This document shows positions 2,615 through 59,105 of a stretch of 64,000 nucleotides of DNA, piece by piece. Position numbers and translations under genes: made by a program. The notes beneath the pieces are model-generated. The model did not search any database, had not been told where the DNA came from, and was given only the letters and a program-made list of their open reading frames with translations. How positions within the stretch are numbered: the first letter of the stretch is position 1; each line of letters begins with the position of its first letter. The stretch lies in NCBI RefSeq assembly GCF_053078305.1, contig NZ_CP166879.1; one strand, 5' to 3'.

Positions 2615-3013
2615 ATGACCACGATTACCAAAGAGCGACTGCAATGGCTGGCTAACATTTCTGGCCGCGATGACATTGACGATATAGACGGCGGTGAGAT
2701 TCGTGAGCTGGCGCTTATCGCGCTGGCATCGCTGGAAGCAGAGCCTGTGGCGTCATGCATTATTGAAGATGGGGGCATGTGTGTTGACGGGGTCGGTGAG
2801 TATGTAGGTCACTCGCTGCCTGGTGGAACGTACCAGCTATACACCGCTTCACCTGTGCCGGTAGTGCCTGAAGGACTGGTTAAAGCAGTGCGCTTTTATG
2901 AACAGGTAAAGCGTGAGAATCCACCAGTTGAAACTGGGGCATGGAAAGATGCCGTTGAGTGGGTGCTCAAAGAGGCTTGCCAGGCTGTAAATATTCGCAT
3001 CAAAGGAGAGTGA
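2615..3013 (+). CDS. hypothetical protein
   Basis: 132-aa ORF, tightly packed with neighbours; C-terminus ...AWKDAVEWVLKEACQAVNIRIKGE is duplicated at 2172..2321. Confidence 0.5.
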   Translation: MTTITKERLQWLANISGRDDIDDIDGGEIRELALIALASLEAEPVASCIIEDGGMCVDGVGEYVGHSLPGGTYQLYTASPVPVVPEGLVKAVRFYEQVKRENPPVETGAWKDAVEWVLKEACQAVNIRIKGE

Positions 3014-3015
3014 GC

Positions 3016-3507
3016 GTGCAGATTTCACCAGTCACTCTTCGTGTTGCGAAGGCGTTTATATCCAGACATCACCGACACAATAAACCTCCGGTGGTGCATA
3101 AATTCAGTATTGGTCTGAGAAATGATGCGGGTGAATTGACAGGTGTGGCGACAGCCGGCAGACCTGTTGCACGCCACTTTGACGATGGGCTGACACTGGA
3201 GGTCAATCGTACCTGTACTACTGGTGAACGTAACGCTAACAGCGCACTTTATGGCGCTGTCTGGAGGGCGGCAAAAGATATGGGCTATCGCCGTTGCATT
3301 ACATACACCAGGGCTGATGAATCCGGGGCCTCTCTTCGGGCAGATGGTTTTGTTCGTGTGAAAGAACTTCCTTCAGGAAAAAGCTGGGCAGAATCAAGTG
3401 TCGCCCTGAAGAGTACACGCGATCCGGTTGGAAGCGGTGGTGTTCCTCGTGTGCTCCGGGAAATCAGGAGAATGAGCACTACTGTCATTCACATCAAAGG
3501 GGAATGA
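3016..3507 (+). CDS. hypothetical protein
   Basis: ORF track 2959..3507; preferred GTG start at 3016 after AAAGGAGAG RBS. Ends with ...IHIKGE, the same junction motif as the two upstream genes. Confidence 0.5.
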   Translation: MQISPVTLRVAKAFISRHHRHNKPPVVHKFSIGLRNDAGELTGVATAGRPVARHFDDGLTLEVNRTCTTGERNANSALYGAVWRAAKDMGYRRCITYTRADESGASLRADGFVRVKELPSGKSWAESSVALKSTRDPVGSGGVPRVLREIRRMSTTVIHIKGE

Positions 3508-3510
3508 GAT

Positions 3511-3978
3511 ATGGCTATTGCAGAGAGAATGGGTATCTCCTCGCGCGGCGATACTTACGAAATCTGGTTGGGAGCAAACTGTTATCACTACCGCTCTGAT
3601 GGTTATGCAGTGCTTCTGAAAGAAGGCAGGAATCGTGCTTATCCATGTCGGGTGACGAGTGAAACGATTAAATCTGCGCTGGCAGCAATTGTTGAATTGC
3701 AACAGAAATTAACTGCGGCAGAGAAGAAAAAGGAGTGTGAGAACCACGGGGTTCTTTTGCCAGCTGAGATGTTAATTCGCTGTCTGGAAGATCAAACAGG
3801 GGGACGGTGGATCCGTGCACATGAACCAGTAATGCTGATGAAACGATTAATCAGTAACCTGAAAAAAGCCAGACCAGAATGTACCGTTCCTGATGAAGCG
3901 CTGGCATATCTCCGGCGTAACTGTCTGGTGAATATGGGCGATATACCCGTTACCAGCAGACGGATGTCTGACGTATAA
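3511..3978 (+). CDS. hypothetical protein
   Basis: 155-aa ORF starting 3 bp after upstream stop; RBS AAAGGGGAA upstream. Confidence 0.5.
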   Translation: MAIAERMGISSRGDTYEIWLGANCYHYRSDGYAVLLKEGRNRAYPCRVTSETIKSALAAIVELQQKLTAAEKKKECENHGVLLPAEMLIRCLEDQTGGRWIRAHEPVMLMKRLISNLKKARPECTVPDEALAYLRRNCLVNMGDIPVTSRRMSDV

Positions 3979-3995
3979 CAAAAAGGAAAAGTGTA

Positions 3996-4571
3996 ATGAC
4001 ATTACCCGTAGACAGCCTGATTGCGTACACGCTGGAAAAAATGCAAGAGCGGATAGTGCAGAAAGGCCGACAACAGGACGGAAAAATACAAAGCGGACTG
4101 CTGTTTACCGGAAATGTGCATGATGCCATTCCGCGTCGACTGCTTCTGGATACTCGACTTTCTCCGCTGGATAAGATGGCGTGGATGATGATTCGGCTGT
4201 ATGCACAGAATAATGAAGGTGCAGTTTTCCCCACATATGACGAACTGCAACTGCAGCTTGCTTCCCCGGGGAAAGGAAAAGCCTCCAGGGAGACTGTCAG
4301 CCGGGTGCTGCTGATGCTGCGGATCACGGGCTGGCTGAGTCTGTGCAAACGGGTGCGTGATGAGAAAGGGCGGGTACGGGGCAATATTTATGCCCAGCAC
4401 GATGAACCGGTGACGTGCCGGGATGCTGAAATACTGGATCCACGTTATCTGGATATGGTGGCAGATGCCTGTATGAGCCGGAACCGGACCATAAGTCAGA
4501 CGGCCCGGGATATTCTGTGCGAAATAAAAAATGATCCGGGGATGCGTCATTATCACAGCCATATCAGTTAA
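3996..4571 (+). CDS. STY4528-family pathogenicity-island replication protein-like (putative winged-helix DNA-binding)
   Basis: 191-aa ORF; recognised by similarity of sequence pattern and position to the SPI-7 STY4528 family. Followed immediately by a palindromic motif array. Confidence 0.5.
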   Translation: MTLPVDSLIAYTLEKMQERIVQKGRQQDGKIQSGLLFTGNVHDAIPRRLLLDTRLSPLDKMAWMMIRLYAQNNEGAVFPTYDELQLQLASPGKGKASRETVSRVLLMLRITGWLSLCKRVRDEKGRVRGNIYAQHDEPVTCRDAEILDPRYLDMVADACMSRNRTISQTARDILCEIKNDPGMRHYHSHIS

Positions 4572-4650
4572 CTGGAAGCCCGGATAGGGAGTGCCCAGAC
4601 ACCGGGACAGATGGCGGCCCGTCAGCGGGTGACTGAGGACCGAATGCAGC

Positions 4651-4862
4651 CGGGTTCGGAAACCGAACCGGGGGTAGAAACACAGAGTTCGGTATTGAAA
4701 ATGCTGAGTTCGGATTCCGAACTCAGTGAAAAACAGGGGCAAAAAATACTGAGTTCGGATTCCGAACCATCAGAAAAATCAGAAGGTTATCACAGAGTTC
4801 GGAAACCGAACCATTACGTACGTAATATCACACACAGTGTGATTAAAAACACGTACGTATTG
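4651..4862. promoter_or_regulatory. array of palindromic GTTCGGA(A/T)(A/T)CCGAAC motifs plus adjacent perfect palindromes; candidate operator/origin
   Basis: Palindromes at about 4654-4668, 4706-4724, 4751-4768, 4795-4812, a half-site near 4685-4692, then TTACGTACGTAA (4814-4825) and ATCACACACAGTGTGAT (4827-4843). Lies between the STY4528-like gene and the RBS-supported start at 4905. Confidence 0.45.
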
Positions 4863-4904
4863 CCTGAAGCGCTGACAGGGCAAATCAGGGAGGAGGAGGC
4901 CATT

Positions 4905-5240
4905 ATGCTGACCAGTCAGTTGCAGGCGCTGCCGGAAGAACTGGCGCAGGGGGTTCTGGAAAGTCTGTCAGGGATGCTGGGCAGCCACTCGCTGCAGAAT
5001 CCTGTGGGCTGGTTGCTTGCAGTGCTGAAGCGAGCCCGGGAGGGAAATTTTTATCCGCCGAAGCAGAAACAACGTGTTGTTGTGCCAGCCTCCGTACTGG
5101 CAGGAGAAAGGGGGCGAGCTACTGCGCAATCAGTTTCATCGGGGAAACGTACGGAACCGATTTCAGCAGAACGTCTGAGTGGCATTGTGGCTGGATTACG
5201 GGCCTCGCTGCGCAGATGTTCTGCGATGAGACCTGAGTGA
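4905..5240 (+). CDS. hypothetical protein
   Basis: ORF track 4611..5240; the internal ATG at 4905 follows a very strong GGGAGGAGGAGG RBS, and the upstream part of the ORF is filled with palindromic repeats, so I take that part as non-coding. Confidence 0.45.
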   Translation: MLTSQLQALPEELAQGVLESLSGMLGSHSLQNPVGWLLAVLKRAREGNFYPPKQKQRVVVPASVLAGERGRATAQSVSSGKRTEPISAERLSGIVAGLRASLRRCSAMRPE

Positions 5241-5339
5241 TTGCGATACGGGCTATGTTCGCGGGAATAAAAATCAACCAGTGCCGCCAGCGACTGGTTA
5301 AAAAGAAAACAGAATCGGGAACTGGTCAGGTGAAACAAG

Positions 5340-5582
5340 GTGGTAAATAGCATGCAGAAATACAAACAGGAAAGTCTGAGTGCAGCCATGAAAGAAAGTG
5401 GCCTGTTGATCGCTAAAATTTGTGCCTGCGTGATTGCCGGAGTGGTGGTTATCTGGGGACTGGTGACAGGCACAGAGACCCTGCTCACTGCGCTGAAAAC
5501 AATGCACGAACAGTACGATAACAGTATGTGTTATATCGTATGTGCCACAGGGTGGTTTTTCCTGGTGTTAAGTAACTGGCTG
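5340..5582 (+). pseudogene. N-terminal fragment of a membrane-protein gene interrupted by IS66-family insertion
   Basis: GTG 5340 ORF reads into the IS end at 5583. The same frame resumes exactly after the target-site duplication at 8104 and continues to 8352. Confidence 0.6.
5575..5582. repeat. left 8-bp target-site duplication (ACTGGCTG) of IS66-family element
   Basis: ACTGGCTG immediately left of the IS end matches ACTGGCTG at 8096-8103 immediately right of the other end. Confidence 0.8.
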
Positions 5583-5612
5583 GTAAGCGTCAACGGAGCA
5601 CCGTATTGACGC

Positions 5613-7205
5613 TTATTTATTGGTGAGTACTACGTTCCATGGCAAGAGTTCATCAACTCGGTTGGAAGGCCATTCCGGCAGTACGCTCAGGATATGGCGC
5701 AGATACGCTTCCGGATCGATACCGTTCAGACGGCAGGTGCCGATCAGCCCGTACAACAGTGCTCCACGCTCGCCGCCGTGATCGCTGCCAAAGAACATAA
5801 AGTTTTTCTTTCCGAGACAGACTGCACGAAGCGCTCTTTCCGCAGCATTATTATCCGCCTCCGCCAGACCGTCATCACTGTAATAACAGAGGGCATCCCA
5901 CTGATTCAGTACATAGCTGAACGCTTCGCCCAGTCTGGATTTTTTCGACAGCGTACCATTCTTCTCCACCATCCATTCATGCAGCGACGTCAGTAACACT
6001 TTGCTTCGCTGCTGCCTGACGGAAAGACGCTCTGACTCCGGTAATCCCCGTATTTCATCCTCGATGGCGTACAGTTCACTGATTCGCTTCAGGGCTTCTT
6101 CTGCCTTCGCACTTTTGCTGCTGATGTATACATCGTGGATTTTTCGCCGGGCATGGGCCCAGCACGCAACTTCTGTCAGTGCACCACCTTCACGTTCTGC
6201 ACTGAACAACCTGTCGTAACCTGTGAACGCATCCGCCTGCAGGATACCCCGGAAGGGGCGGAGGTGTTGCTCCGGGTGTTTCCCCTGCCGGTTCGGCGAG
6301 TACGCGAACCAGACCGCTGGAGGAGATGACGAACCCACATTGCGATCATCCCGGACATACGTCCAGATACGCCCTGTTTTCGCCTTTTTCTGACCCGGTG
6401 CCAGTACCTTTACCGGTGTGTCATCAGTGTGAACCTTGCGGGTGTTCATTACATAACGGTACAGGGCATCATTCACCGGTGTCATTAACTGGCAGCACGC
6501 GTCAACCCAGTTGGAGAGTAAGGCCCGGCTCAGTTCGACACCCTTGCGGGCAAAGATTTCACTCTGACGATACAGTGGCAGATGTTCGCAGTATTTTCCC
6601 GTTAACACGCGGGCAAGTAATCCGGGGCCCGCGATACCACGCTCTATCGGGCGGGACGGCGCCGGTGCTTCAACGATGCAGTCACATTTTGTACAGGCTT
6701 TTTTTACCCGTTCTGTGCGGATCACTTTCAGGGCGCTGCTCACCAGTTCCAGTTGTTCTGCACTGACTTCCCCCAGATAATCCAGCTCACCGCCACACTC
6801 CGGGCAACAGCTTTCTTCAGACTCCAGACGGTGTATTTCACGGGGAAGGTGTGCCGGTAACGGACGACGATGGCGCGACTGTCGCAACTGGCGGGGAACC
6901 TGTGGATCGTCTTCCCGCCCACTGTAACGATCGCTGTCCTGTTCGCGTTGTTTCAGCAGGGCCTCAGCCTGTTCAACTTCACGACGCAGTTTTTCAGAAC
7001 GGGTACCGAACAGCATCCGGCGCAGTTTTTCTATCTGAGCCCGCAGATGTTCTATTTCCCGTTCATCTTCTTCGATCTTTTCTTCGGCACGTGCCAGTGC
7101 AGAGCGCAGGAAGGCCTCCGTCTCTTCAACCAGACTCAGTTGCTGGTCTTTCTGACGGAGCTGGCTTTCCAGTTCTGCAATGCGAATGAGGTATTTCTGA
7201 CTCAT
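5613..7205 (-). CDS. tnpC: IS66-family transposase (TnpC / Orf3)
   Basis: 530-aa ORF with N-terminal leucine-zipper-like coiled coil, CPECGGE zinc-finger motif and the conserved IS66 transposase core. Confidence 0.9.
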   Translation of the reverse strand: MSQKYLIRIAELESQLRQKDQQLSLVEETEAFLRSALARAEEKIEEDEREIEHLRAQIEKLRRMLFGTRSEKLRREVEQAEALLKQREQDSDRYSGREDDPQVPRQLRQSRHRRPLPAHLPREIHRLESEESCCPECGGELDYLGEVSAEQLELVSSALKVIRTERVKKACTKCDCIVEAPAPSRPIERGIAGPGLLARVLTGKYCEHLPLYRQSEIFARKGVELSRALLSNWVDACCQLMTPVNDALYRYVMNTRKVHTDDTPVKVLAPGQKKAKTGRIWTYVRDDRNVGSSSPPAVWFAYSPNRQGKHPEQHLRPFRGILQADAFTGYDRLFSAEREGGALTEVACWAHARRKIHDVYISSKSAKAEEALKRISELYAIEDEIRGLPESERLSVRQQRSKVLLTSLHEWMVEKNGTLSKKSRLGEAFSYVLNQWDALCYYSDDGLAEADNNAAERALRAVCLGKKNFMFFGSDHGGERGALLYGLIGTCRLNGIDPEAYLRHILSVLPEWPSNRVDELLPWNVVLTNK

Positions 7206-7235
7206 GACCGTTTTTATAATGCGGTCAGGATTTTT

Positions 7236-7586
7236 TTACAACATTGTCAGTGAGTTACGGCGGGATGTTTTTGGCTGACGCCAGTCCAGCTTATCGAGGA
7301 GCATTGCCAGTTGCGAGCGGGTAATGGATACCTTGCCGTCACGTACCGCAGGCCAGATAAACTGGCCTTCCTCCAGGCGTTTAGTGAACAGGCACAGACC
7401 ATCAGCATCAGCCCAAAGAATTTTAACGGTGTCACCCCGTCGGCCACGGAAGATAAACAGGTGACCGGAGAAGGGATTATCATTCAGCACATGTTGTACC
7501 TGTTCTCCCAGTCCGTTGAAGGATTTACGCATATCGGTAACGCCGGCAACGAGCCAGATACGGGTACCTGATGGGAGTGAGATCAT
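7236..7586 (-). CDS. tnpB: IS66-family accessory protein TnpB (Orf2)
   Basis: 116-aa ORF typical of IS66 Orf2, 4-bp overlap with tnpA. Confidence 0.85.
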   Translation of the reverse strand: MISLPSGTRIWLVAGVTDMRKSFNGLGEQVQHVLNDNPFSGHLFIFRGRRGDTVKILWADADGLCLFTKRLEEGQFIWPAVRDGKVSITRSQLAMLLDKLDWRQPKTSRRNSLTML

Positions 7587-8008
7587 CTTCCCCTCCCGGT
7601 CAGTTCACGGATCAACACCGTGAGCAGCTCTGGCGATGGATTTTCCAGCGTCATGTTACCGTGACGGAATTCCACCTTGCAGGAGCTGGCACTGACTCTG
7701 GTCTGAGAGGTAGTGGATAAAGATGGCGCAATGGCCACCACAGGTTCTTTCTGCTCATCCGGCGTTATTTCTACAGGTAATAATTCAACGCCAGTGTCAG
7801 AAGAGGTCGTTACCGGAAGACGCCGCGAAACACGCCCTTCGTTCTGCCAGAGCCTGAGCCATTTGAACAGGAGGTTATCATTGATATCGTGTTCCCGGGC
7901 GATACGGGCAACAGAGGCTCCTGGTTGCAAAGCCAGTTTAACCATTTGAAGTTTAAAATTATTTGAAAATGATCTGCGGGGTTCTGCGGATAATGTTTTT
8001 TGCTCCAT
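7583..8008 (-). CDS. tnpA: IS66-family TnpA (Orf1), helix-turn-helix protein
   Basis: 141-aa ORF at the 5' end of the IS66 operon; N-terminal HTH-like region. Confidence 0.8.
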   Translation of the reverse strand: MEQKTLSAEPRRSFSNNFKLQMVKLALQPGASVARIAREHDINDNLLFKWLRLWQNEGRVSRRLPVTTSSDTGVELLPVEITPDEQKEPVVAIAPSLSTTSQTRVSASSCKVEFRHGNMTLENPSPELLTVLIRELTGRGR

Positions 8009-8095
8009 AACAGGCGTCCACTAGTTTGAAAAGGTGGGCACCTACGTTACCAATACTGGCTTAATGGCTACATACGGCAGTCGGTTTACGCTTAC

Positions 8096-8103
8096 ACTGG
8101 CTG
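8096..8103. repeat. right 8-bp target-site duplication (ACTGGCTG) of IS66-family element
   Basis: Identical to 5575-5582. Confidence 0.8.
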
Positions 8104-8352
8104 TGGATCACATACAGTCTTTATAAAGCGCGTACAGGCAGTACAGTCGGAGGGGGCCTGCAATTTATGCTCCTCCTGAGTCTGCTGGCAGAATGCTTTT
8201 CATTTTTTGTGATTTTCTGGTCATTGTCTCATCTGGATATAACCGACATTCAGTTGCTCGTGATGGGGATAACAACATTAATGCTGTTTTTGTCTCTGAA
8301 CGTTAAGGTAGTAGTCATCATTAACCATGTTGCCAGTGGCAACAGTGATTAA
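8104..8352 (+). pseudogene. C-terminal fragment of the IS66-interrupted membrane-protein gene
   Basis: In frame with 5340..5582 once the IS and one TSD copy are removed; hydrophobic sequence (ORF track 8167..8352 is its tail). Its 3' end runs into the first unit of the tandem palindrome array. Confidence 0.5.
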
Positions 8353-9120
8353 AAAGCGAGCGGTGTTGCCAGTGGCAACAGAGTACAGAAAATAGTCAAT
8401 GGTGCCAGTGGCACCAGAGTACAAAAAATACTCAATGGTGCCAGTGGCACCATAGTATAAAAAATAGCCAATGGTGCCAGTGGTACCAGAGTACAAAAAA
8501 TAGCCAATGGTGCCAGTGGCACCAGAGTACAAAAAATAGCCAATGGTGCCAGTGGCACCATAGTATAAAAAATAGCCAATGGTGCCAGTGGCACCAGAGT
8601 ACAAAAAATAGCCAATGGTGCCAGTGGCACCAGAGTACAAAAAATAGCCAATGGTGCCAGTGGCACCATAGTATAAAAAATAGCCAATGGTGCCAGTGGC
8701 ACCAGAGTACAAAAAATAGCCAATGGTGCCAGTGGCACCATAGTATAAAAAATAGCCAATGGTGCCAGTGGCACCAGAGTACAAAAAATAGCCAATGGTG
8801 CCAGTGGCACCATAGTATAAAAAATAGCCAATGGTGCCAGTGGCAACAGAGTACAGAAAATAGTCAATGGTGCCAGTGGCACCAGAGTACAAAAAATAGT
8901 CAATGGTGCCAGTGGCACCATAGTATAAAAAATAGCCAATGGTGCCAGTGGCAGCAGAGGTTAAAAAGCGAACAGTGCAGCCAGTGGCAGCAGAGGTTAA
9001 AAAGTGAACAGTGCTGCCAGTGGCAGCAGAGATTAAAAAATGAGCAGTGCTGCCAGTGGCAACAGAGGTTAAAAAGTGAGCGGTGTTGCCAGTGGCAACA
9101 GCGATTAAAAAATAAGCGGC
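8329..9120. repeat. tandem array of about 22 units of 36-37 bp, each with a 15-bp palindrome G(G/T/C)TGCCAGTGGCA(C/A/G)C; candidate centromere-like or iteron array
   Basis: Central about 16 units near-identical, alternating two variants (72-bp higher-order period). Flanking units diverged, with GTTGCCAGTGGCAAC and GCTGCCAGTGGCAGC cores. Confidence 0.85.
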
Positions 9121-9216
9121 GTTAAATGTATATTCTGCCTGATTTGTTTTTTTGTTGTCGGTAATACGCAACCTGCGGACTATCTTCTGGTCATGAAATC
9201 ATTCGGAGTAAACACA

Positions 9217-9921
9217 ATGCCCCAGGAGAAAACCGGAGAAGTCAGAAAATCAGAACAAGTTGGTGCTCTGCAGTCATCGCTGACTATTGCCCTTCATACC
9301 CGATATGCGATCCGTCTCTGGGAGGGACGCAGGAATAATCAGAAGGAAGAAAAACAGGAAAAGCGGCCTGACATCATCAGTATGCCCAGGGCTATTGCGT
9401 TTGCGGGTCAGGCAACCAGAGATTCAGCCAGGGATAATCCTTATGCAGATATGATGTTAGTCAGGCTGGAAAATGCCCTGACGAAGGCAACTGAAACAAT
9501 TGAAAAGCATCTTGCGTGGCTTGACGGGATCCTTAAAAACCTGCCGGGACAGATCTCCCTTTCTGATATTAAATCCTCTTCGCCGGTAAATATTGGCGTG
9601 TACAGTAGTTCTCCGGTCGGTTATCGATGTGTATGGCTTCTGATCGGATATGATCGACTGGTCATGAAGGTATTTCAGGTATTTCATTACGGACTTATTT
9701 CCCGCACAAAACGGGATGAGTTGCTGAATCAGGGAGGGTATGCGGTACGCAGGATTTACGGGATTATTCAAAATTATAAATCAGTCAGTGTTACACGTGC
9801 TGATATTTTGTCCGGCACAGCCCGTGGAAAGGAGGCGGTTAACCGCATGGGGGAGCCGGATCCTGACGTGATGAGCGGTAAGAAACGTTCTGTTTATTCA
9901 CCACCGGTTAAAGCGGGGTGA
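9217..9921 (+). CDS. hypothetical ICE backbone protein
   Basis: ORF track 9193..9921; ATG 9217 preceded by GGAG RBS. 4-bp overlap with topB. Confidence 0.5.
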   Translation: MPQEKTGEVRKSEQVGALQSSLTIALHTRYAIRLWEGRRNNQKEEKQEKRPDIISMPRAIAFAGQATRDSARDNPYADMMLVRLENALTKATETIEKHLAWLDGILKNLPGQISLSDIKSSSPVNIGVYSSSPVGYRCVWLLIGYDRLVMKVFQVFHYGLISRTKRDELLNQGGYAVRRIYGIIQNYKSVSVTRADILSGTARGKEAVNRMGEPDPDVMSGKKRSVYSPPVKAG

Positions 9922-12232: not shown

Positions 12233-12528
12233 GTCGCTCCGGCGACCACCAATGCTCCACAAGTGGCCTGAGAGGAGCGCCTTCGGGTGGCTACATGTCG
12301 CTTCGGCGACCACCAATGCTCCATAAGTGGTCTGAGAGGAGCGCCTTCGGGTGACCACATCCCGCTTCGGTGGGCACCAATGTTCCGTTGATCTGAGAGG
12401 AACGCCTTCGGGTGATCAACACCCCCGTAACCTGAAAGGGGATGTGCAGCCAGGATGTTTCTGGTGGTGGTAAATCTGCCCACCTTTGAGAGCAGATATC
12501 GTCAGTCATGACGATGAAGGTTTTCTTT
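12233..12528 (+). repeat. structured repeat element, copy 1 (three about 60-nt sub-units plus tail); candidate ncRNA
   Basis: Repeated hairpins with CTTCGG tetraloop motifs (GTCGC-TTCG-GCGAC etc.) and recurring CTGAGAGGA motifs. Near-identical to copies at 56604-56840 and 58871-59105. Confidence 0.5.
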
Positions 12529-23171: not shown

Positions 23172-23357
23172 TCAGAGTAACGACAGCGCCGGAATGACAA
23201 CAATGTTGACGAAAATAATGAACAGAGTGATGGCCCTGATGACGTCATAGATCCACGGGGGGCAACGAGGTTCTTCATAAATGAAAAAATACACAACACA
23301 AACCCAGGTCAGAAGGAACAGGGCCCAGAACGGAAGGGCAGTACGGAGAAATTCCAT
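23172..23357 (-). CDS. small membrane protein in AT-rich insert
   Basis: 61-aa two-TM ORF on the opposite strand in a low-GC segment inside the T4SS cluster. Confidence 0.35.
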   Translation of the reverse strand: MEFLRTALPFWALFLLTWVCVVYFFIYEEPRCPPWIYDVIRAITLFIIFVNIVVIPALSLL

Positions 23358-23463
23358 GCTGATGTGTTTCCTCTTTAAATTGTTAATGCGGTGCCATTAA
23401 CGGGAAACAGTAGTGATGCCGTGTTTTAATAAACAGGAATAAATCATTCAGGCTGGAATAAAT

Positions 23464-24030
23464 TTATTTGAACAGAATCTGGAACAGCGAGATGCAGAAA
23501 CTGGCTATGCTGACAGCCCCCAGAACATAGTTTATTCTTCTGGCCAGCTTCTCTTTTTTCTGACAGGAATTATAAATGTCATGAAGTGACATGGCTAATA
23601 ACTGCACTTCTGACTCACTGACATCGGGTAAACTGATTATATTTTGTAACTGTTGTTTTATATCCTCAGGGAGTTCTGTGAATGGGGCATATTTCTCGTA
23701 CCATGTGATCAGTTCTCTGACCCGGGGGACGTGATGTGAAAAGTTGTTATCAGTCAGAAAATCATTGAAAACAGACAGCAGTGCGCTTTTGATATGTTCA
23801 TGACTGGCAGACCAGCGTTCGGCCAGTAAACAGATATCATTATTTTGTAAACTGCCATTTATTATCGCTTCTTTCAGTTTTTTCTCGTACTTTCTCTTTT
23901 TTGATGATCTGTCTATATCATTGATAGTCAGGATAATGAATATCAGGCCGATGAGATAGACTGTCAGGAGAATGATTATACTGATGATGTCGTTCATGCC
24001 AGGAGTTCCGGGTTGTTTGCCTTCATCCAC
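23464..24030 (-). CDS. membrane protein in AT-rich insert
   Basis: 188-aa ORF with N- and C-terminal TM helices, low GC, convergent to the T4SS genes. Confidence 0.45.
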   Translation of the reverse strand: MDEGKQPGTPGMNDIISIIILLTVYLIGLIFIILTINDIDRSSKKRKYEKKLKEAIINGSLQNNDICLLAERWSASHEHIKSALLSVFNDFLTDNNFSHHVPRVRELITWYEKYAPFTELPEDIKQQLQNIISLPDVSESEVQLLAMSLHDIYNSCQKKEKLARRINYVLGAVSIASFCISLFQILFK

Positions 24031-56444: not shown

Positions 56445-56603
56445 TTATCTCAGAATAAACATTGATGAATGGTAATAACAGGGACTGTTAATACTGTCCC
56501 TGTTATTTTTTCTGCAGACTGTTTTCTGTTCTTCCTGGTTATGTTCTGAGTGATGATGATTGACGCCTTTTATACGCTCTGATATGCTCAGAATGCATTA
56601 TCT

Positions 56604-56840
56604 GTCGCTTCGGCGACCACCAATGCTCCATAAGTGGTCTGAGAGGAGCGCCTTCGGGTGGCCACATCCCGCTTCGGTGGGCACCAATGTTCCGTTGATC
56701 TGAGAGGAACGCCTTCGGGTGATCAACACCCCCGTAACCTGAAAGGGGATGTGCAGCCAGGATGTTTCTGGTGGTGGTAAATCTGCCCACCTTTGAGAGC
56801 AGATATCGTCAGTCATGATGATGAAGGTTTCTTTTAACCG
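56604..56840 (+). repeat. structured repeat element, copy 2; left direct repeat flanking the recombinase module
   Basis: Near-identical to 58871-59105 and to the last two sub-units plus tail of 12233-12528; the similarity continues about 20 bp past the element. Confidence 0.55.
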
Positions 56841-57467
56841 CGCCCTTTATTACGGGCAATACACAGCAGTGGTTGTGTGATCCTTATCTATCCGGTGATG
56901 CCGGAATGTTTTTACTGCGTAATGGCGGTATTGACTTCTTTTATTCTTTTCATTTGTTTGCCAGCACTTCCTGCGACTGTGCGCGCTGTATAAGACCATT
57001 TGAAATTTGGTCGCTTACGCGTGTACCTGGCGTCTGAAGCTGCGCGGCGTCACTTTCGTCAGCGTGTCACGATGACAAAGTGACGCACGCGCGTCTGCTT
57101 AACGAACCCGCACGAACTGCCGTTTCACGTGATGTTTTTTAACATTTGAAGAAGTGACCCGGCGTGAGAGTGTTTTTTCAACCTCTTCTGCAAATTTACG
57201 GACGATTTTGTGAATAACGTCCATAAATGGTTTTTTGCAGAATTAATTGTTTTTTAAGGAGTTTTATGTAGTGAGATGCCGAATCGGCGATACCACTTAT
57301 TAGAGGTGGTGTCGGGGGCGACCTGGAGACAGGTACAGCAAATGCTGCAGTCGGTGTGCAACACCGATTTGTTACCCCTCAATACCTAAACAATCTGCGC
57401 TACCCTGGCGCACAGGCAGTCACTACCCGAAGGATCGCAACGTTTAACCGTGTCGTCAGGGAGAAAT

Positions 57468-58826: not shown

Positions 58827-58870
58827 CTTGACATTCATCTTTTGTGATTTAAAAATATACAGGCTTATAT

Positions 58871-59105
58871 GTCGCTTCGGCGACCACCAATGCTCCATAA
58901 GTGGTCTGAGAGGAGCGCCTTCGGGTGACCACATCCCGCTTCGGTGGGCACCAATGTTCCGTTGATCTGAGAGGAACGCCTTCGGGTGATCAACACCCCC
59001 GTAACCTGAAAGGGGATGTGCAGCCAGGATGTTTCTGGTGGTGGTAAATCTGCCCACCTTTGAGAGCAGATATCGTCAGTCATGACGATGAAGGTTTCTT
59101 TATAA
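58871..59105 (+). repeat. structured repeat element, copy 3; right direct repeat flanking the recombinase module
   Basis: Near-identical to 56604-56840. Confidence 0.55.

Follow-up and report, generated by a model that had tools for sequence, protein, structure and literature searches.

Insertion sequences of the IS66 and IS679 archetypes are about 2.5 kb long, possess GTAA-type ends, and encode TnpA, TnpB, and TnpC, a DDE transposase that contains a zinc finger as well as a leucine zipper; the tnpA and tnpB reading frames overlap in an ATGA. In the transposition step of this family, TnpC makes staggered cuts 8 bp apart, and gap repair leads to direct repeats, which appear as an 8-bp duplication of the target. 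By the convention of ISfinder, an element with a nucleotide identity of at least 95% to a named element is an isoform of it. The literature on the family includes Machida (1984), Han et al. (2001), and Gourbeyre et al. (2010).

The 8-bp target duplication has been given as a rule of the IS66 family (PMC6778807), and such a duplication was found here on both sides of an element in a stretch of 64,000 nucleotides from contig NZ_CP166879.1 (“the window”). The layout of this element is that of the archetypes, with differences at the sequence level only. As judged from the comparisons below, the locus very probably originated from a recent and simple insertion of a transpositionally competent isoform of ISEc23 into a 159-codon gene of an integrative and conjugative element (ICE), which would have knocked out this gene.

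Structure of the insertion

The element and its boundaries are composed of the following features:

5583 to 8095, minus strand: complete IS66-family insertion sequence, ISEc23 isoform, 2,513 bp, junctions read directly
5575 to 5582, no strand: left copy of the target-site duplication, ACTGGCTG, present as a single copy in empty sites
8096 to 8103, no strand: right copy of the target-site duplication, ACTGGCTG, read directly
5583 to 5606, no strand: terminal inverted repeat at the tnpC-distal end (IRR), GTAAGCGTCAACGGAGCACCGTAT
8072 to 8095, no strand: terminal inverted repeat at the tnpA-proximal end (IRL)
5613 to 7205, minus strand: tnpC, DDE transposase, 530 aa, intact (PF03050, 3e-97; NF033517, 448.5 bits, cutoff 180)
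7236 to 7586, minus strand: tnpB (IS66 Orf2), 116 aa, intact (PF05717, 1e-36; NF033819, 120.9 bits, cutoff 50)
7583 to 8008, minus strand: tnpA, HTH accessory protein, 141 aa, intact (PF01527, 8e-15; NF047595, 86.1 bits, cutoff 74)

The original prediction was an IS66-family element with tnpA, tnpB, and tnpC, in this order, on the minus strand. Three minus-strand ORFs indeed matched the IS66 models, all three proteins exceeded the curated family cutoffs, and the profile search assigned zf-IS66, LZ_Tnp_IS66, and IS66_C domains to TnpC in addition. The start of tnpB and the stop of tnpA overlap in an ATGA at positions 7583 to 7586. The type of TnpC, the presence of TnpB and of an HTH-containing TnpA, the GTAAGCG ends, and the 8-bp duplication all agree with membership in this family.

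The predicted GTAAGCG-type terminal inverted repeats were recovered as arms of 24 nt, which are imperfect with 19 of 24 positions complementary but identical in their first 8 bases. The left flank ends with ...AACTGGCTG at position 5582, followed by the first bases of the element, GTAAGCGTCAACGG..., from position 5583 onward, and its last bases, ...GGTTTACGCTTAC, extend to position 8095. This gives GTGTTAAGTAACTGGCTGGTAAGCGTCAACGG and GGTTTACGCTTACACTGGCTGTGGATCACA as the left and right junction k-mers, respectively. The exact left terminus occurred once in the window, compared to 0.00 expected occurrences.

The identical flanking repeats, which had also been predicted, are perfect and exactly 8 bp long with no extension in either direction. 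Evaluation of such a short repeat needs to consider that the octamer ACTGGCTG is over-represented in the window, with 19 occurrences instead of the 2.9 expected. Despite this, the chance of finding it at the single required position is only about 1.5e-4. The duplication is genuine because the natural empty sites hold the octamer once.

The interrupted gene and its empty sites

Two fragments of one gene flank the element:

5352 to 5582, plus strand: 5' fragment, codons 1 to 77 of 159, start as in the PGAP-annotated intact allele and the homologue alignment
8104 to 8352, plus strand: 3' fragment, codons 78 to 159 and the stop codon

In-silico excision joined positions 5340 to 5582 with positions 8104 to 8352 into 492 nt (163 codons and a stop codon) that are free of internal stops, where a continuous ORF of about 164 aa had been proposed, and the membrane-protein gene restored in this way matched the natural, uninterrupted gene. 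The intact gene is annotated by NCBI with 480 nt and 159 aa (WP_001562662.1) and starts at the ATG that corresponds to position 5352 of the window. An AAGGTGG Shine-Dalgarno sequence is located 8 nt upstream of this ATG, with the GTG at position 5340 falling inside it. Among five aligned family members, four start with MQ at this residue. Because of the Shine-Dalgarno spacing, the start used by PGAP, and the MQ starts in the family, the ATG at 5352 rather than the GTG at 5340 is almost certainly the true start, yielding 159 aa.

The sequence without the insertion, from which the element and one repeat copy had been removed, matched three other E. coli chromosomes in one piece with 100% identity over 940 bp, and 15 further ones with an identity of at least 98%. 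In the comparison with related ICEs lacking the element that had been suggested as a check, the site was continuous in all 18 chromosomes, and separate genes in different reading frames were not seen in any of them. The two chromosomes with an empty site in which the annotation was checked both carried a single 480-nt CDS.

The ATG at position 8167 inside the 3' fragment opens an ORF of 61 aa, and the protein family does not have a curated model, which could speak for two independent small genes with a coincidental in-frame joining. The empty sites, however, are continuous and annotated as one CDS in the two chromosomes checked for it, and the homologues, 156 to 162 aa in length, align across the junction with a conserved SNWLW motif spanning the insertion point. 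The empty sites and this alignment refute two independent genes, which are accordingly left with a very low probability.

In the preferred interpretation as a simple insertion, TnpC would have acted together with the accessory proteins TnpA and TnpB and cut the target in a staggered fashion, 8 bp apart, at codon 77/78 of the 159-codon ICE accessory gene, and gap repair would have generated the direct repeats by duplicating ACTGGCTG. The ORF of the 5' fragment now runs 8 codons (VSVNGAPY) into the element up to a stop codon at positions 5607 to 5609, and the 85-aa fused product is on record exactly as WP_447309356.1. The outcome should be a simple knock-out with, at most, this 85-aa fragment as product, which would include transmembrane helix 1, the larger part of helix 2, and 8 residues encoded by the element. 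Between the 3' half and its translation start and upstream region, there are now 2.5 kb of DNA in the opposite orientation.

Rarity and age of the occupied allele

The occupied site was absent from all 5,426 complete E. coli genomes searched, among which the genome of the window is evidently not included. It was present in one draft assembly, GCA_000736735.1, with the same junctions and a match of 100% to the window over 4,593 bp. The truncated product was found on 1 contig, while the intact protein identical to the restored one occurs on 649, so that the allele is known from no more than one or two assemblies. The contig with the truncated product has a size of 5.94 Mb and may or may not belong to the strain of GCA_000736735.1. 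In this draft assembly, a second identical copy of the element is located on the same contig as the occupied site and is a possible donor.

The genome holds at least one further identical copy of the element, and repeats are difficult to assemble; the element may therefore have been acquired by homologous recombination between such copies, or may be an assembly artefact. On the other hand, the octamer of the perfect 8-bp duplication is present as a single-copy target in empty sites, the window and the ICE of SI-NP020 are collinear at 99.0 to 99.7% identity with flanks that overlap by exactly the 8-bp target, and the junctions are those of GCA_000736735.1, with the truncated product also listed on the 5.94-Mb contig. 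Recombination or an artefact is extremely improbable when all this is considered.

The original prediction had deduced a recent insertion from the intact duplication. Recency was upheld, but the duplication is weak evidence for it, since 16 bp would stay unchanged over long periods. By sequence comparison, the insertion is recent instead because the element has 0 differences from copies elsewhere, the empty sites are 100% identical, and the allele is rare. This is a relative statement and does not provide a date.

Assignment to ISEc23 and probable activity of the variant

The element is 98.3% identical over the full length to copies on E. coli chromosomes and plasmids labelled “IS66-like element ISEc23 family” by PGAP and is, by this comparison with PGAP-labelled copies and not with the ISfinder reference entry, an isoform of ISEc23. 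Both have identical termini, the three-gene layout, an identical TnpB, and the 8-bp target duplication, while TnpA differs by 1 aa. The window copy deviates from ISEc23 by 24 substitutions and a 21-bp in-frame deletion, resulting in 2,513 bp instead of 2,534 bp and in a TnpC of 530 aa instead of 537 aa, with 7 residues missing from the N-terminal coiled coil.

ISEc23-type matches occurred in 4,842 of the 5,426 complete E. coli genomes, but a full-length copy of the 2,513-bp sub-variant in none of them. The exact 530-aa TnpC was encoded on 105 contigs of draft assemblies. Copies 100% identical to the window element are present at other loci. Besides the site in the window, six distinct sites hold 2,513-bp copies that show 0 or 1 differences, and each of these copies is flanked by a perfect 8-bp duplication of its own. 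Two ISEc23 copies that were examined also had their own 8-bp duplication, and a target consensus was not seen among ten duplications. From the near-identical copies and their duplications at six other sites, we infer that the deletion variant is transpositionally competent, with an 8-bp duplication as its rule.

Protein family of the interrupted gene

The restored protein contains four hydrophobic segments. AlphaFold2, run on an alignment of 5 sequences, predicted four helices with moderate-to-low confidence (pLDDT 65.7), and a Foldseek search of this model against the PDB gave nothing better than E = 0.8, with generic helical bundles only. The restored protein and four distant homologues had no hits in Pfam and NCBIfam. 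The homologues cover residues 1 to 145, or up to residue 149, of the restored 159 residues. By its hydrophobic segments and the model, the product is probably an inner-membrane protein with four helices, and its family is small and uncharacterised.

The gene for mating-pair stabilisation in transfer operons is traN, and the homologue genes were positioned directly after traN in six of six family contexts examined. The nearest known counterpart is an unnamed ORF after traN in F-type tra operons (e.g., WP_073519947.1 of the E. coli plasmid CP010207), which is near trbE or in the trbE position. It has the same size as the restored protein, shares 25 to 48% identity along most of the length, and is collinear except for short gaps. 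The settings differ, a tra operon in one case and the end of the ICE replication/partition module in the other, and the ICE protein, unlike the post-traN homologues, is extended at its C-terminus by a tail that the first unit of an adjacent palindrome array encodes. Homology to F-plasmid TrbE (PF11100), considered because of the location of the homologues in or beside the trbE position, was rejected due to an hhalign probability of 0.1%. In two plasmid types, the homologue is encoded beside a separate, genuine TrbE gene.

Because the other known members of the family are encoded immediately behind traN in F-type transfer operons, we infer a role linked to conjugation for the interrupted gene. 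The distribution across F-type operons and the ICE may even indicate an unstudied four-helix family that is common to F-type transfer operons and this ICE lineage and functions in conjugation, for instance, in exclusion or as a mating-pair function. In the same proposal, the repeated insertions of the identical variant into this ICE lineage could reflect preferential transposition into the ICE and a route by which the host immobilises it. This combined proposal is rather unlikely. If true, the window would represent a natural knock-out for probing the conjugation role and the preferential targeting of the ICE. The family of small, traN-adjacent membrane proteins is a minor lead for researchers interested in conjugation.

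The palindrome array and expression around the site

Two features are located next to the split gene:

8328 to 9114, no strand: tandem array of 36-bp units, each with a TGGTGCCAGTGGCACCA-type palindrome
3996 to 5240, plus strand: STY4528-family island replication gene upstream of the split gene, with a C>T nonsense mutation at position 4569 (Gln192 to TAA)

The split gene had been described as directly next to the palindrome array. This adjacency was confirmed, with the last 25 nt of the gene forming the first palindromic unit. The array has 20.8 copies in the window, compared to 8.4 in strain SI-NP020 and 20.5 in strain RM11911. The promoter and terminator assignments that follow come from consensus scans only. 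A terminator-like hairpin for the plus strand was located within the element at positions 7972 to 7991, between the upstream operon and the array. The scan did not flag an outward promoter-like site at the ends of the element, including the one facing the array. Promoter-like sites were present at positions 9086 to 9134, just upstream of the next gene, which therefore need not depend on read-through.

This arrangement bears on an adaptive or regulatory insertion, in which the element would alter transcription into the array and the downstream AcaB-like and topB genes, or uncouple the replication gene from the presumed binding array, and would have been retained for this reason. The overlap of the gene with the array, the position of the hairpin, and the recurrence of IS66-family insertions in this ICE region agree with such an explanation. 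It would have to operate, however, with no outward promoter-like site at the array-facing end, with promoter-like sites directly ahead of the next gene, and with an allele limited to one or two assemblies, and the inactivation of the neighboring replication gene is a better fit to decay than to tuning. A regulatory insertion is therefore improbable. The simple knock-out and the adjacent nonsense mutation look like an ordinary mutational erosion of this ICE copy and not like a regulatory innovation, and the second lesion suggests that the copy is decaying. Neither of the two truncated STY4528 fragments was present in the collection in which they were looked up.

The insertion is an ordinary event, and its allele is already in public assemblies. 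It is of little importance in itself, since E. coli genomes very commonly carry IS66-family insertions. Its value for annotation is that the two short ORFs flanking the element should be marked as one pseudogene with a start at position 5352. The ICE copy carries two adjacent inactivating lesions, which bears on its remaining ability to replicate and transfer.

The host element in comparison with related ICEs

Two pheV-borne ICEs of LEE-negative STEC are ICEEc7 and ICEEc8 (PMC6455142). The window does not contain a tRNA gene. By its gene content, the host element is an SPI-7/PFGI-1-type ICE of E. coli. The TIGR03761 model, for instance, scored 254.9 bits (cutoff 110.7) at positions 9193 to 9921, and the SI-NP020 element collinear with the window is annotated. 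The interrupted gene is absent from the RM11911-type ICE, a diverged relative. As it is missing there, it should not belong to the backbone functions, and losing it is probably tolerated. IS66-family elements have inserted repeatedly into this ICE region, and the identical variant was found independently in at least three places of this ICE lineage in different strains: the split gene, topB, and the pilL2 region. With SPI-7/PFGI-1/PAPI-1-type ICEs, the host element shares the backbone of dnaB-PI, parB, STY4528-family, PFL_4669, topB, STY4534-family, ssb, pilL2, traD, and TIGR037xx proteins. It differs from the other ICEs of this type in the accessory gene split by the insertion sequence and the nonsense mutation in the STY4528-family gene.

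Structure of the insertion and the empty site

The insertion sequence (IS) of 2,513 bp extends from position 5583 (GTAAGCGTCAACGG...) to position 8095 (...GGTTTACGCTTAC), as read directly in window positions 5200-8500 with indexing of the junctions. Its termini form a 24-nt inverted repeat, which is complementary at 19 of 24 positions and identical over the first 8 bases; the left terminus occurs only once in the window. The octamer ACTGGCTG abuts both ends at 5575-5582 and 8096-8103, and the repeat is exactly 8 bp long. This matches base for base the structure described in the original prediction, an IS flanked by an 8-bp target duplication inside a membrane-protein gene. Evaluation of the duplication needs to consider that ACTGGCTG is present 19 times in the whole window, 15 times on the plus strand, compared to 2.9 occurrences expected from dinucleotide shuffles, which is probably due to an oligonucleotide bias of the coding strand. 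This abundance does not threaten the case for a duplication because the natural empty site contains one copy, exactly at the predicted place.

The empty site was represented by a 940-bp query across the join after in silico deletion of 5583..8103. This query was matched by 100% in one piece in three E. coli chromosomes (SI-NP020, FHI_NMBU_10, and CH4811) and by 98.1 to 99.8% in 15 further E. coli chromosomes. In the two chromosomes opened, PGAP annotated a single 480-nt coding sequence (CDS) at this site, WP_001562662.1, “hypothetical protein,” which corresponds to window positions 5352..5582 plus 8104..8352. The whole window was collinear with the element of strain SI-NP020 at 99.0 to 99.7% identity, and the IS flanks overlapped on this reference by exactly the 8-bp target. 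Excision and comparison with IS-free relatives restored one continuous CDS, as had been expected; since the natural empty sites are continuous and the two opened carry this single CDS, the flanking ORFs are not two separate genes in different frames. The restored ORF had been read from a GTG at 5340, which indeed gives 163 codons, but the ATG at 5352, yielding 159 amino acids (aa), is the better start: AAGGTGG, which includes the GTG, is located 8 nt upstream of it, PGAP starts there, and MQ begins there in four of five aligned family members.

The IS as an isoform of ISEc23

Three minus-strand ORFs occupy the IS and matched the TnpA, TnpB, and TnpC models of IS66, which bears out the predicted family and gene content.

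Genes of the IS
8008..7583, minus strand, tnpA, 141 aa; HTH_Tnp_1 and IS66 TnpA model NF047595, above cutoff
7586..7236, minus strand, tnpB, 116 aa; TnpB_IS66/IS66_TnpB match
7205..5613, minus strand, tnpC, 530 aa; DDE_Tnp_IS66 (3e-97)

TnpC also contains zinc-finger, leucine-zipper, and C-terminal IS66 domains and scored 448 bits against NCBIfam transpos_IS66 (cutoff 180). The tnpA stop overlaps the tnpB start in the ATGA at 7583-7586, the usual arrangement in the IS66 family. Matches to the IS were present in 4,842 of 5,426 complete E. coli genomes; the best full-length matches were 98.3% identical and annotated as “IS66-like element ISEc23 family.” Alignment to one ISEc23 copy revealed 24 substitutions and, in tnpC at window positions 7160-7163, an in-frame deletion of 21 bp; TnpC thereby lacks 7 residues of the N-terminal coiled coil of the ISEc23 protein. 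There is no change in TnpB and a change of 1 residue in TnpA. Judged by this identity and alignment, the element is an ISEc23 isoform with every gene intact.

The exact 530-aa TnpC was found on 105 contigs, and no full-length copy of the deletion variant was among the 5,426 complete E. coli genomes. Ten places encoding this TnpC were retrieved; in all ten, the retrieved part of the IS was identical to the window copy or showed a single difference. Six distinct insertion sites besides that of the window each possessed their own perfect 8-bp duplication, likewise two ordinary ISEc23 copies; among the ten places, one IS copy had mismatched flanks and one was interrupted by a contig end. No target consensus was seen among the duplicated octamers. 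The deletion variant thus seems to move and to be still spreading, with the 8-bp duplication as its apparent rule, a length also given for IS66 in PMC6778807.

Age of the insertion

The insertion had been predicted to be recent because its duplication is intact. Recency holds, but not on this basis: an intact duplication is of little value as evidence, since at the approximately 0.3 to 1% divergence between copies of the integrative conjugative element (ICE), a stretch of 16 bp would in most cases show no change. It is instead supported by an IS without any difference from copies elsewhere, by excised flanks 100% identical to empty sites of other strains, and by the rarity of the allele. The occupied site was found in 0 of 5,426 complete E. 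coli genomes. The truncated product, composed of 77 native residues followed by VSVNGAPY, was recorded in its exact form on 1 contig; the intact protein was recorded in identical form on 649. The draft genome GCA_000736735.1 (JPQG01000001.1:21653-26245) is 100% identical to window positions 4113-8705 and belongs to the source strain itself or to one very closely related to it. Its contig contains another identical IS copy, flanked by a different duplication, which is a plausible donor. The records of the intact 159-aa protein and of the truncated 85-aa product give the same length, 5,941,328 bp, for their longest contig, which hints at a second island copy with an intact gene in the source genome.

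The neighboring palindrome array

The last 25 nt of the split gene are the first palindromic unit of an array with a 36-bp period.

Arrays of 36-bp units
Window 8328-9114, tandem array with TGGTGCCAGTGGCACCA-type palindrome, 20.8 units
Strain SI-NP020 (locus L001), 3902-4262, same type, 8.4 units
Strain RM11911 (locus L006), 2862-3598, same type, 20.5 units

The position of the array after the STY4528-family “island replication protein” gene is kept across diverged elements, even without the 159-aa gene, and this suggests that the array may be a cis site of a replication/partition module. Many units score as terminator-like hairpins on the minus strand, and PGAP calls spurious minus-strand ORFs across the array (“saposin” or “beta strand repeat-containing protein”). 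The IS places 2.5 kb between the STY4528-family gene and the array and is antisense to the upstream operon. The original prediction was that the insertion may alter expression around the array. Consensus scans, the results of which are pattern matches only, flagged a terminator-like hairpin on the plus strand within the IS (7972-7991) and promoter-like sites at 9086-9134 just upstream of the next gene; at the array-facing IS end, they flagged no outward promoter. From this pattern, a strong polar or activating effect of the IS is not predicted. That next gene, 9193..9921 on the plus strand, encodes a PFL_4669-family ICE protein whose orthologues carry a precomputed Pfam match to AcaB (PF08900), a family of conjugation activators, so it may be a regulator.

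Probable decay of the host ICE

The host is an SPI-7/PFGI-1-type ICE with dnaB-PI, parB, the STY4528-family gene, PFL_4669, topB, ssb, pilL2, traD, and TIGR037xx genes; ICEs located at pheV and carrying genes for conjugation and type IV pili are on record for LEE-negative STEC (PMC6455142). Directly upstream of the split gene, the STY4528-family gene (3996..5240, plus strand) has a C>T mutation at 4569, which converts CAA for Gln192 into a TAA stop and leaves two ORFs of 191 and 209 aa, so that two adjacent genes are inactivated. It is intact with 414 codons in SI-NP020 and hundreds of other contigs.

Other E. coli strains carry independent insertions of IS66-family elements in the same ICE lineage. 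The identical 2,513-bp variant was located inside topB of GCA_053506145.1 (L016, 611-3123; window equivalent ~10333) and in the pilL2 region of GCA_018428675.1 (L020; ~15538). Another IS66-family element interrupts the PFL_4669 gene in GCA_026134865.1 (L027; ~9786), and the SI-NP020 ICE contains a 3.4-kb nested IS66-family insertion at an intergenic site (L005, 29224-32645; window equivalent 23298), where the window has ~710 bp (23299-24007). Of the nine distinct sites sampled for the variant, three are in this ICE. A target preference is possible, but the sample is nonrandom; the simplest reading of these insertions is that IS elements erode a mobile element in the ordinary way.

The window also contains three STAXI motifs (Rfam, 76 to 94 bits; 12360-12525, 56603-56768, and 58870-59035, plus strand) and one EFASI motif (Rfam, 53 bits; 57268-57425, plus strand). 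Both are structured elements known to occur in conjugative DNA, and all four copies lie away from the IS insertion.

The split membrane protein and its relatives

In the restored protein, four segments are hydrophobic (residues ~17-40, 60-80, 97-118, and 124-150), and its AlphaFold2 model shows four long helices with modest confidence (pLDDT 65.7). The insertion point follows residue 77, inside the second segment. No Pfam or NCBIfam model matched, a Foldseek search of the PDB with the model was uninformative, and an index of 5.8 billion proteins gave only near-identical E. coli relatives. An exhaustive HMMER search revealed four distant full-length relatives of 156 to 162 aa with 25 to 48% identity, whose genes all follow traN directly in F-type tra operons; a gene with 44.7% identity occupies this position on E. 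coli IncFIB plasmids. The homologues are positioned in the traN-traF gap in some cases and between traN and a genuine trbE in others.

Loci of split-gene homologues
L007, L008, L009, L021, L022, and L023: after traN, beside or in place of trbE

Homology of the restored protein to F TrbE was tested and rejected. The diverged ICE relative in RM11911 lacks the 159-aa gene, and its array directly follows the STY4528-family gene. This absence and the position of the homologues after traN lead us to infer an accessory inner-membrane protein that is associated with conjugative elements and not needed for the ICE backbone.

The analysis confirms the observation and supports its interpretation, which is refined in two points: the start codon and the grounds for recency. 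Such an IS insertion is a thoroughly known kind of event, and public data already include the allele. The one lead that is mildly new is the small membrane-protein family, uncharacterized and with no curated model, that F-type tra operons and this ICE have in common.
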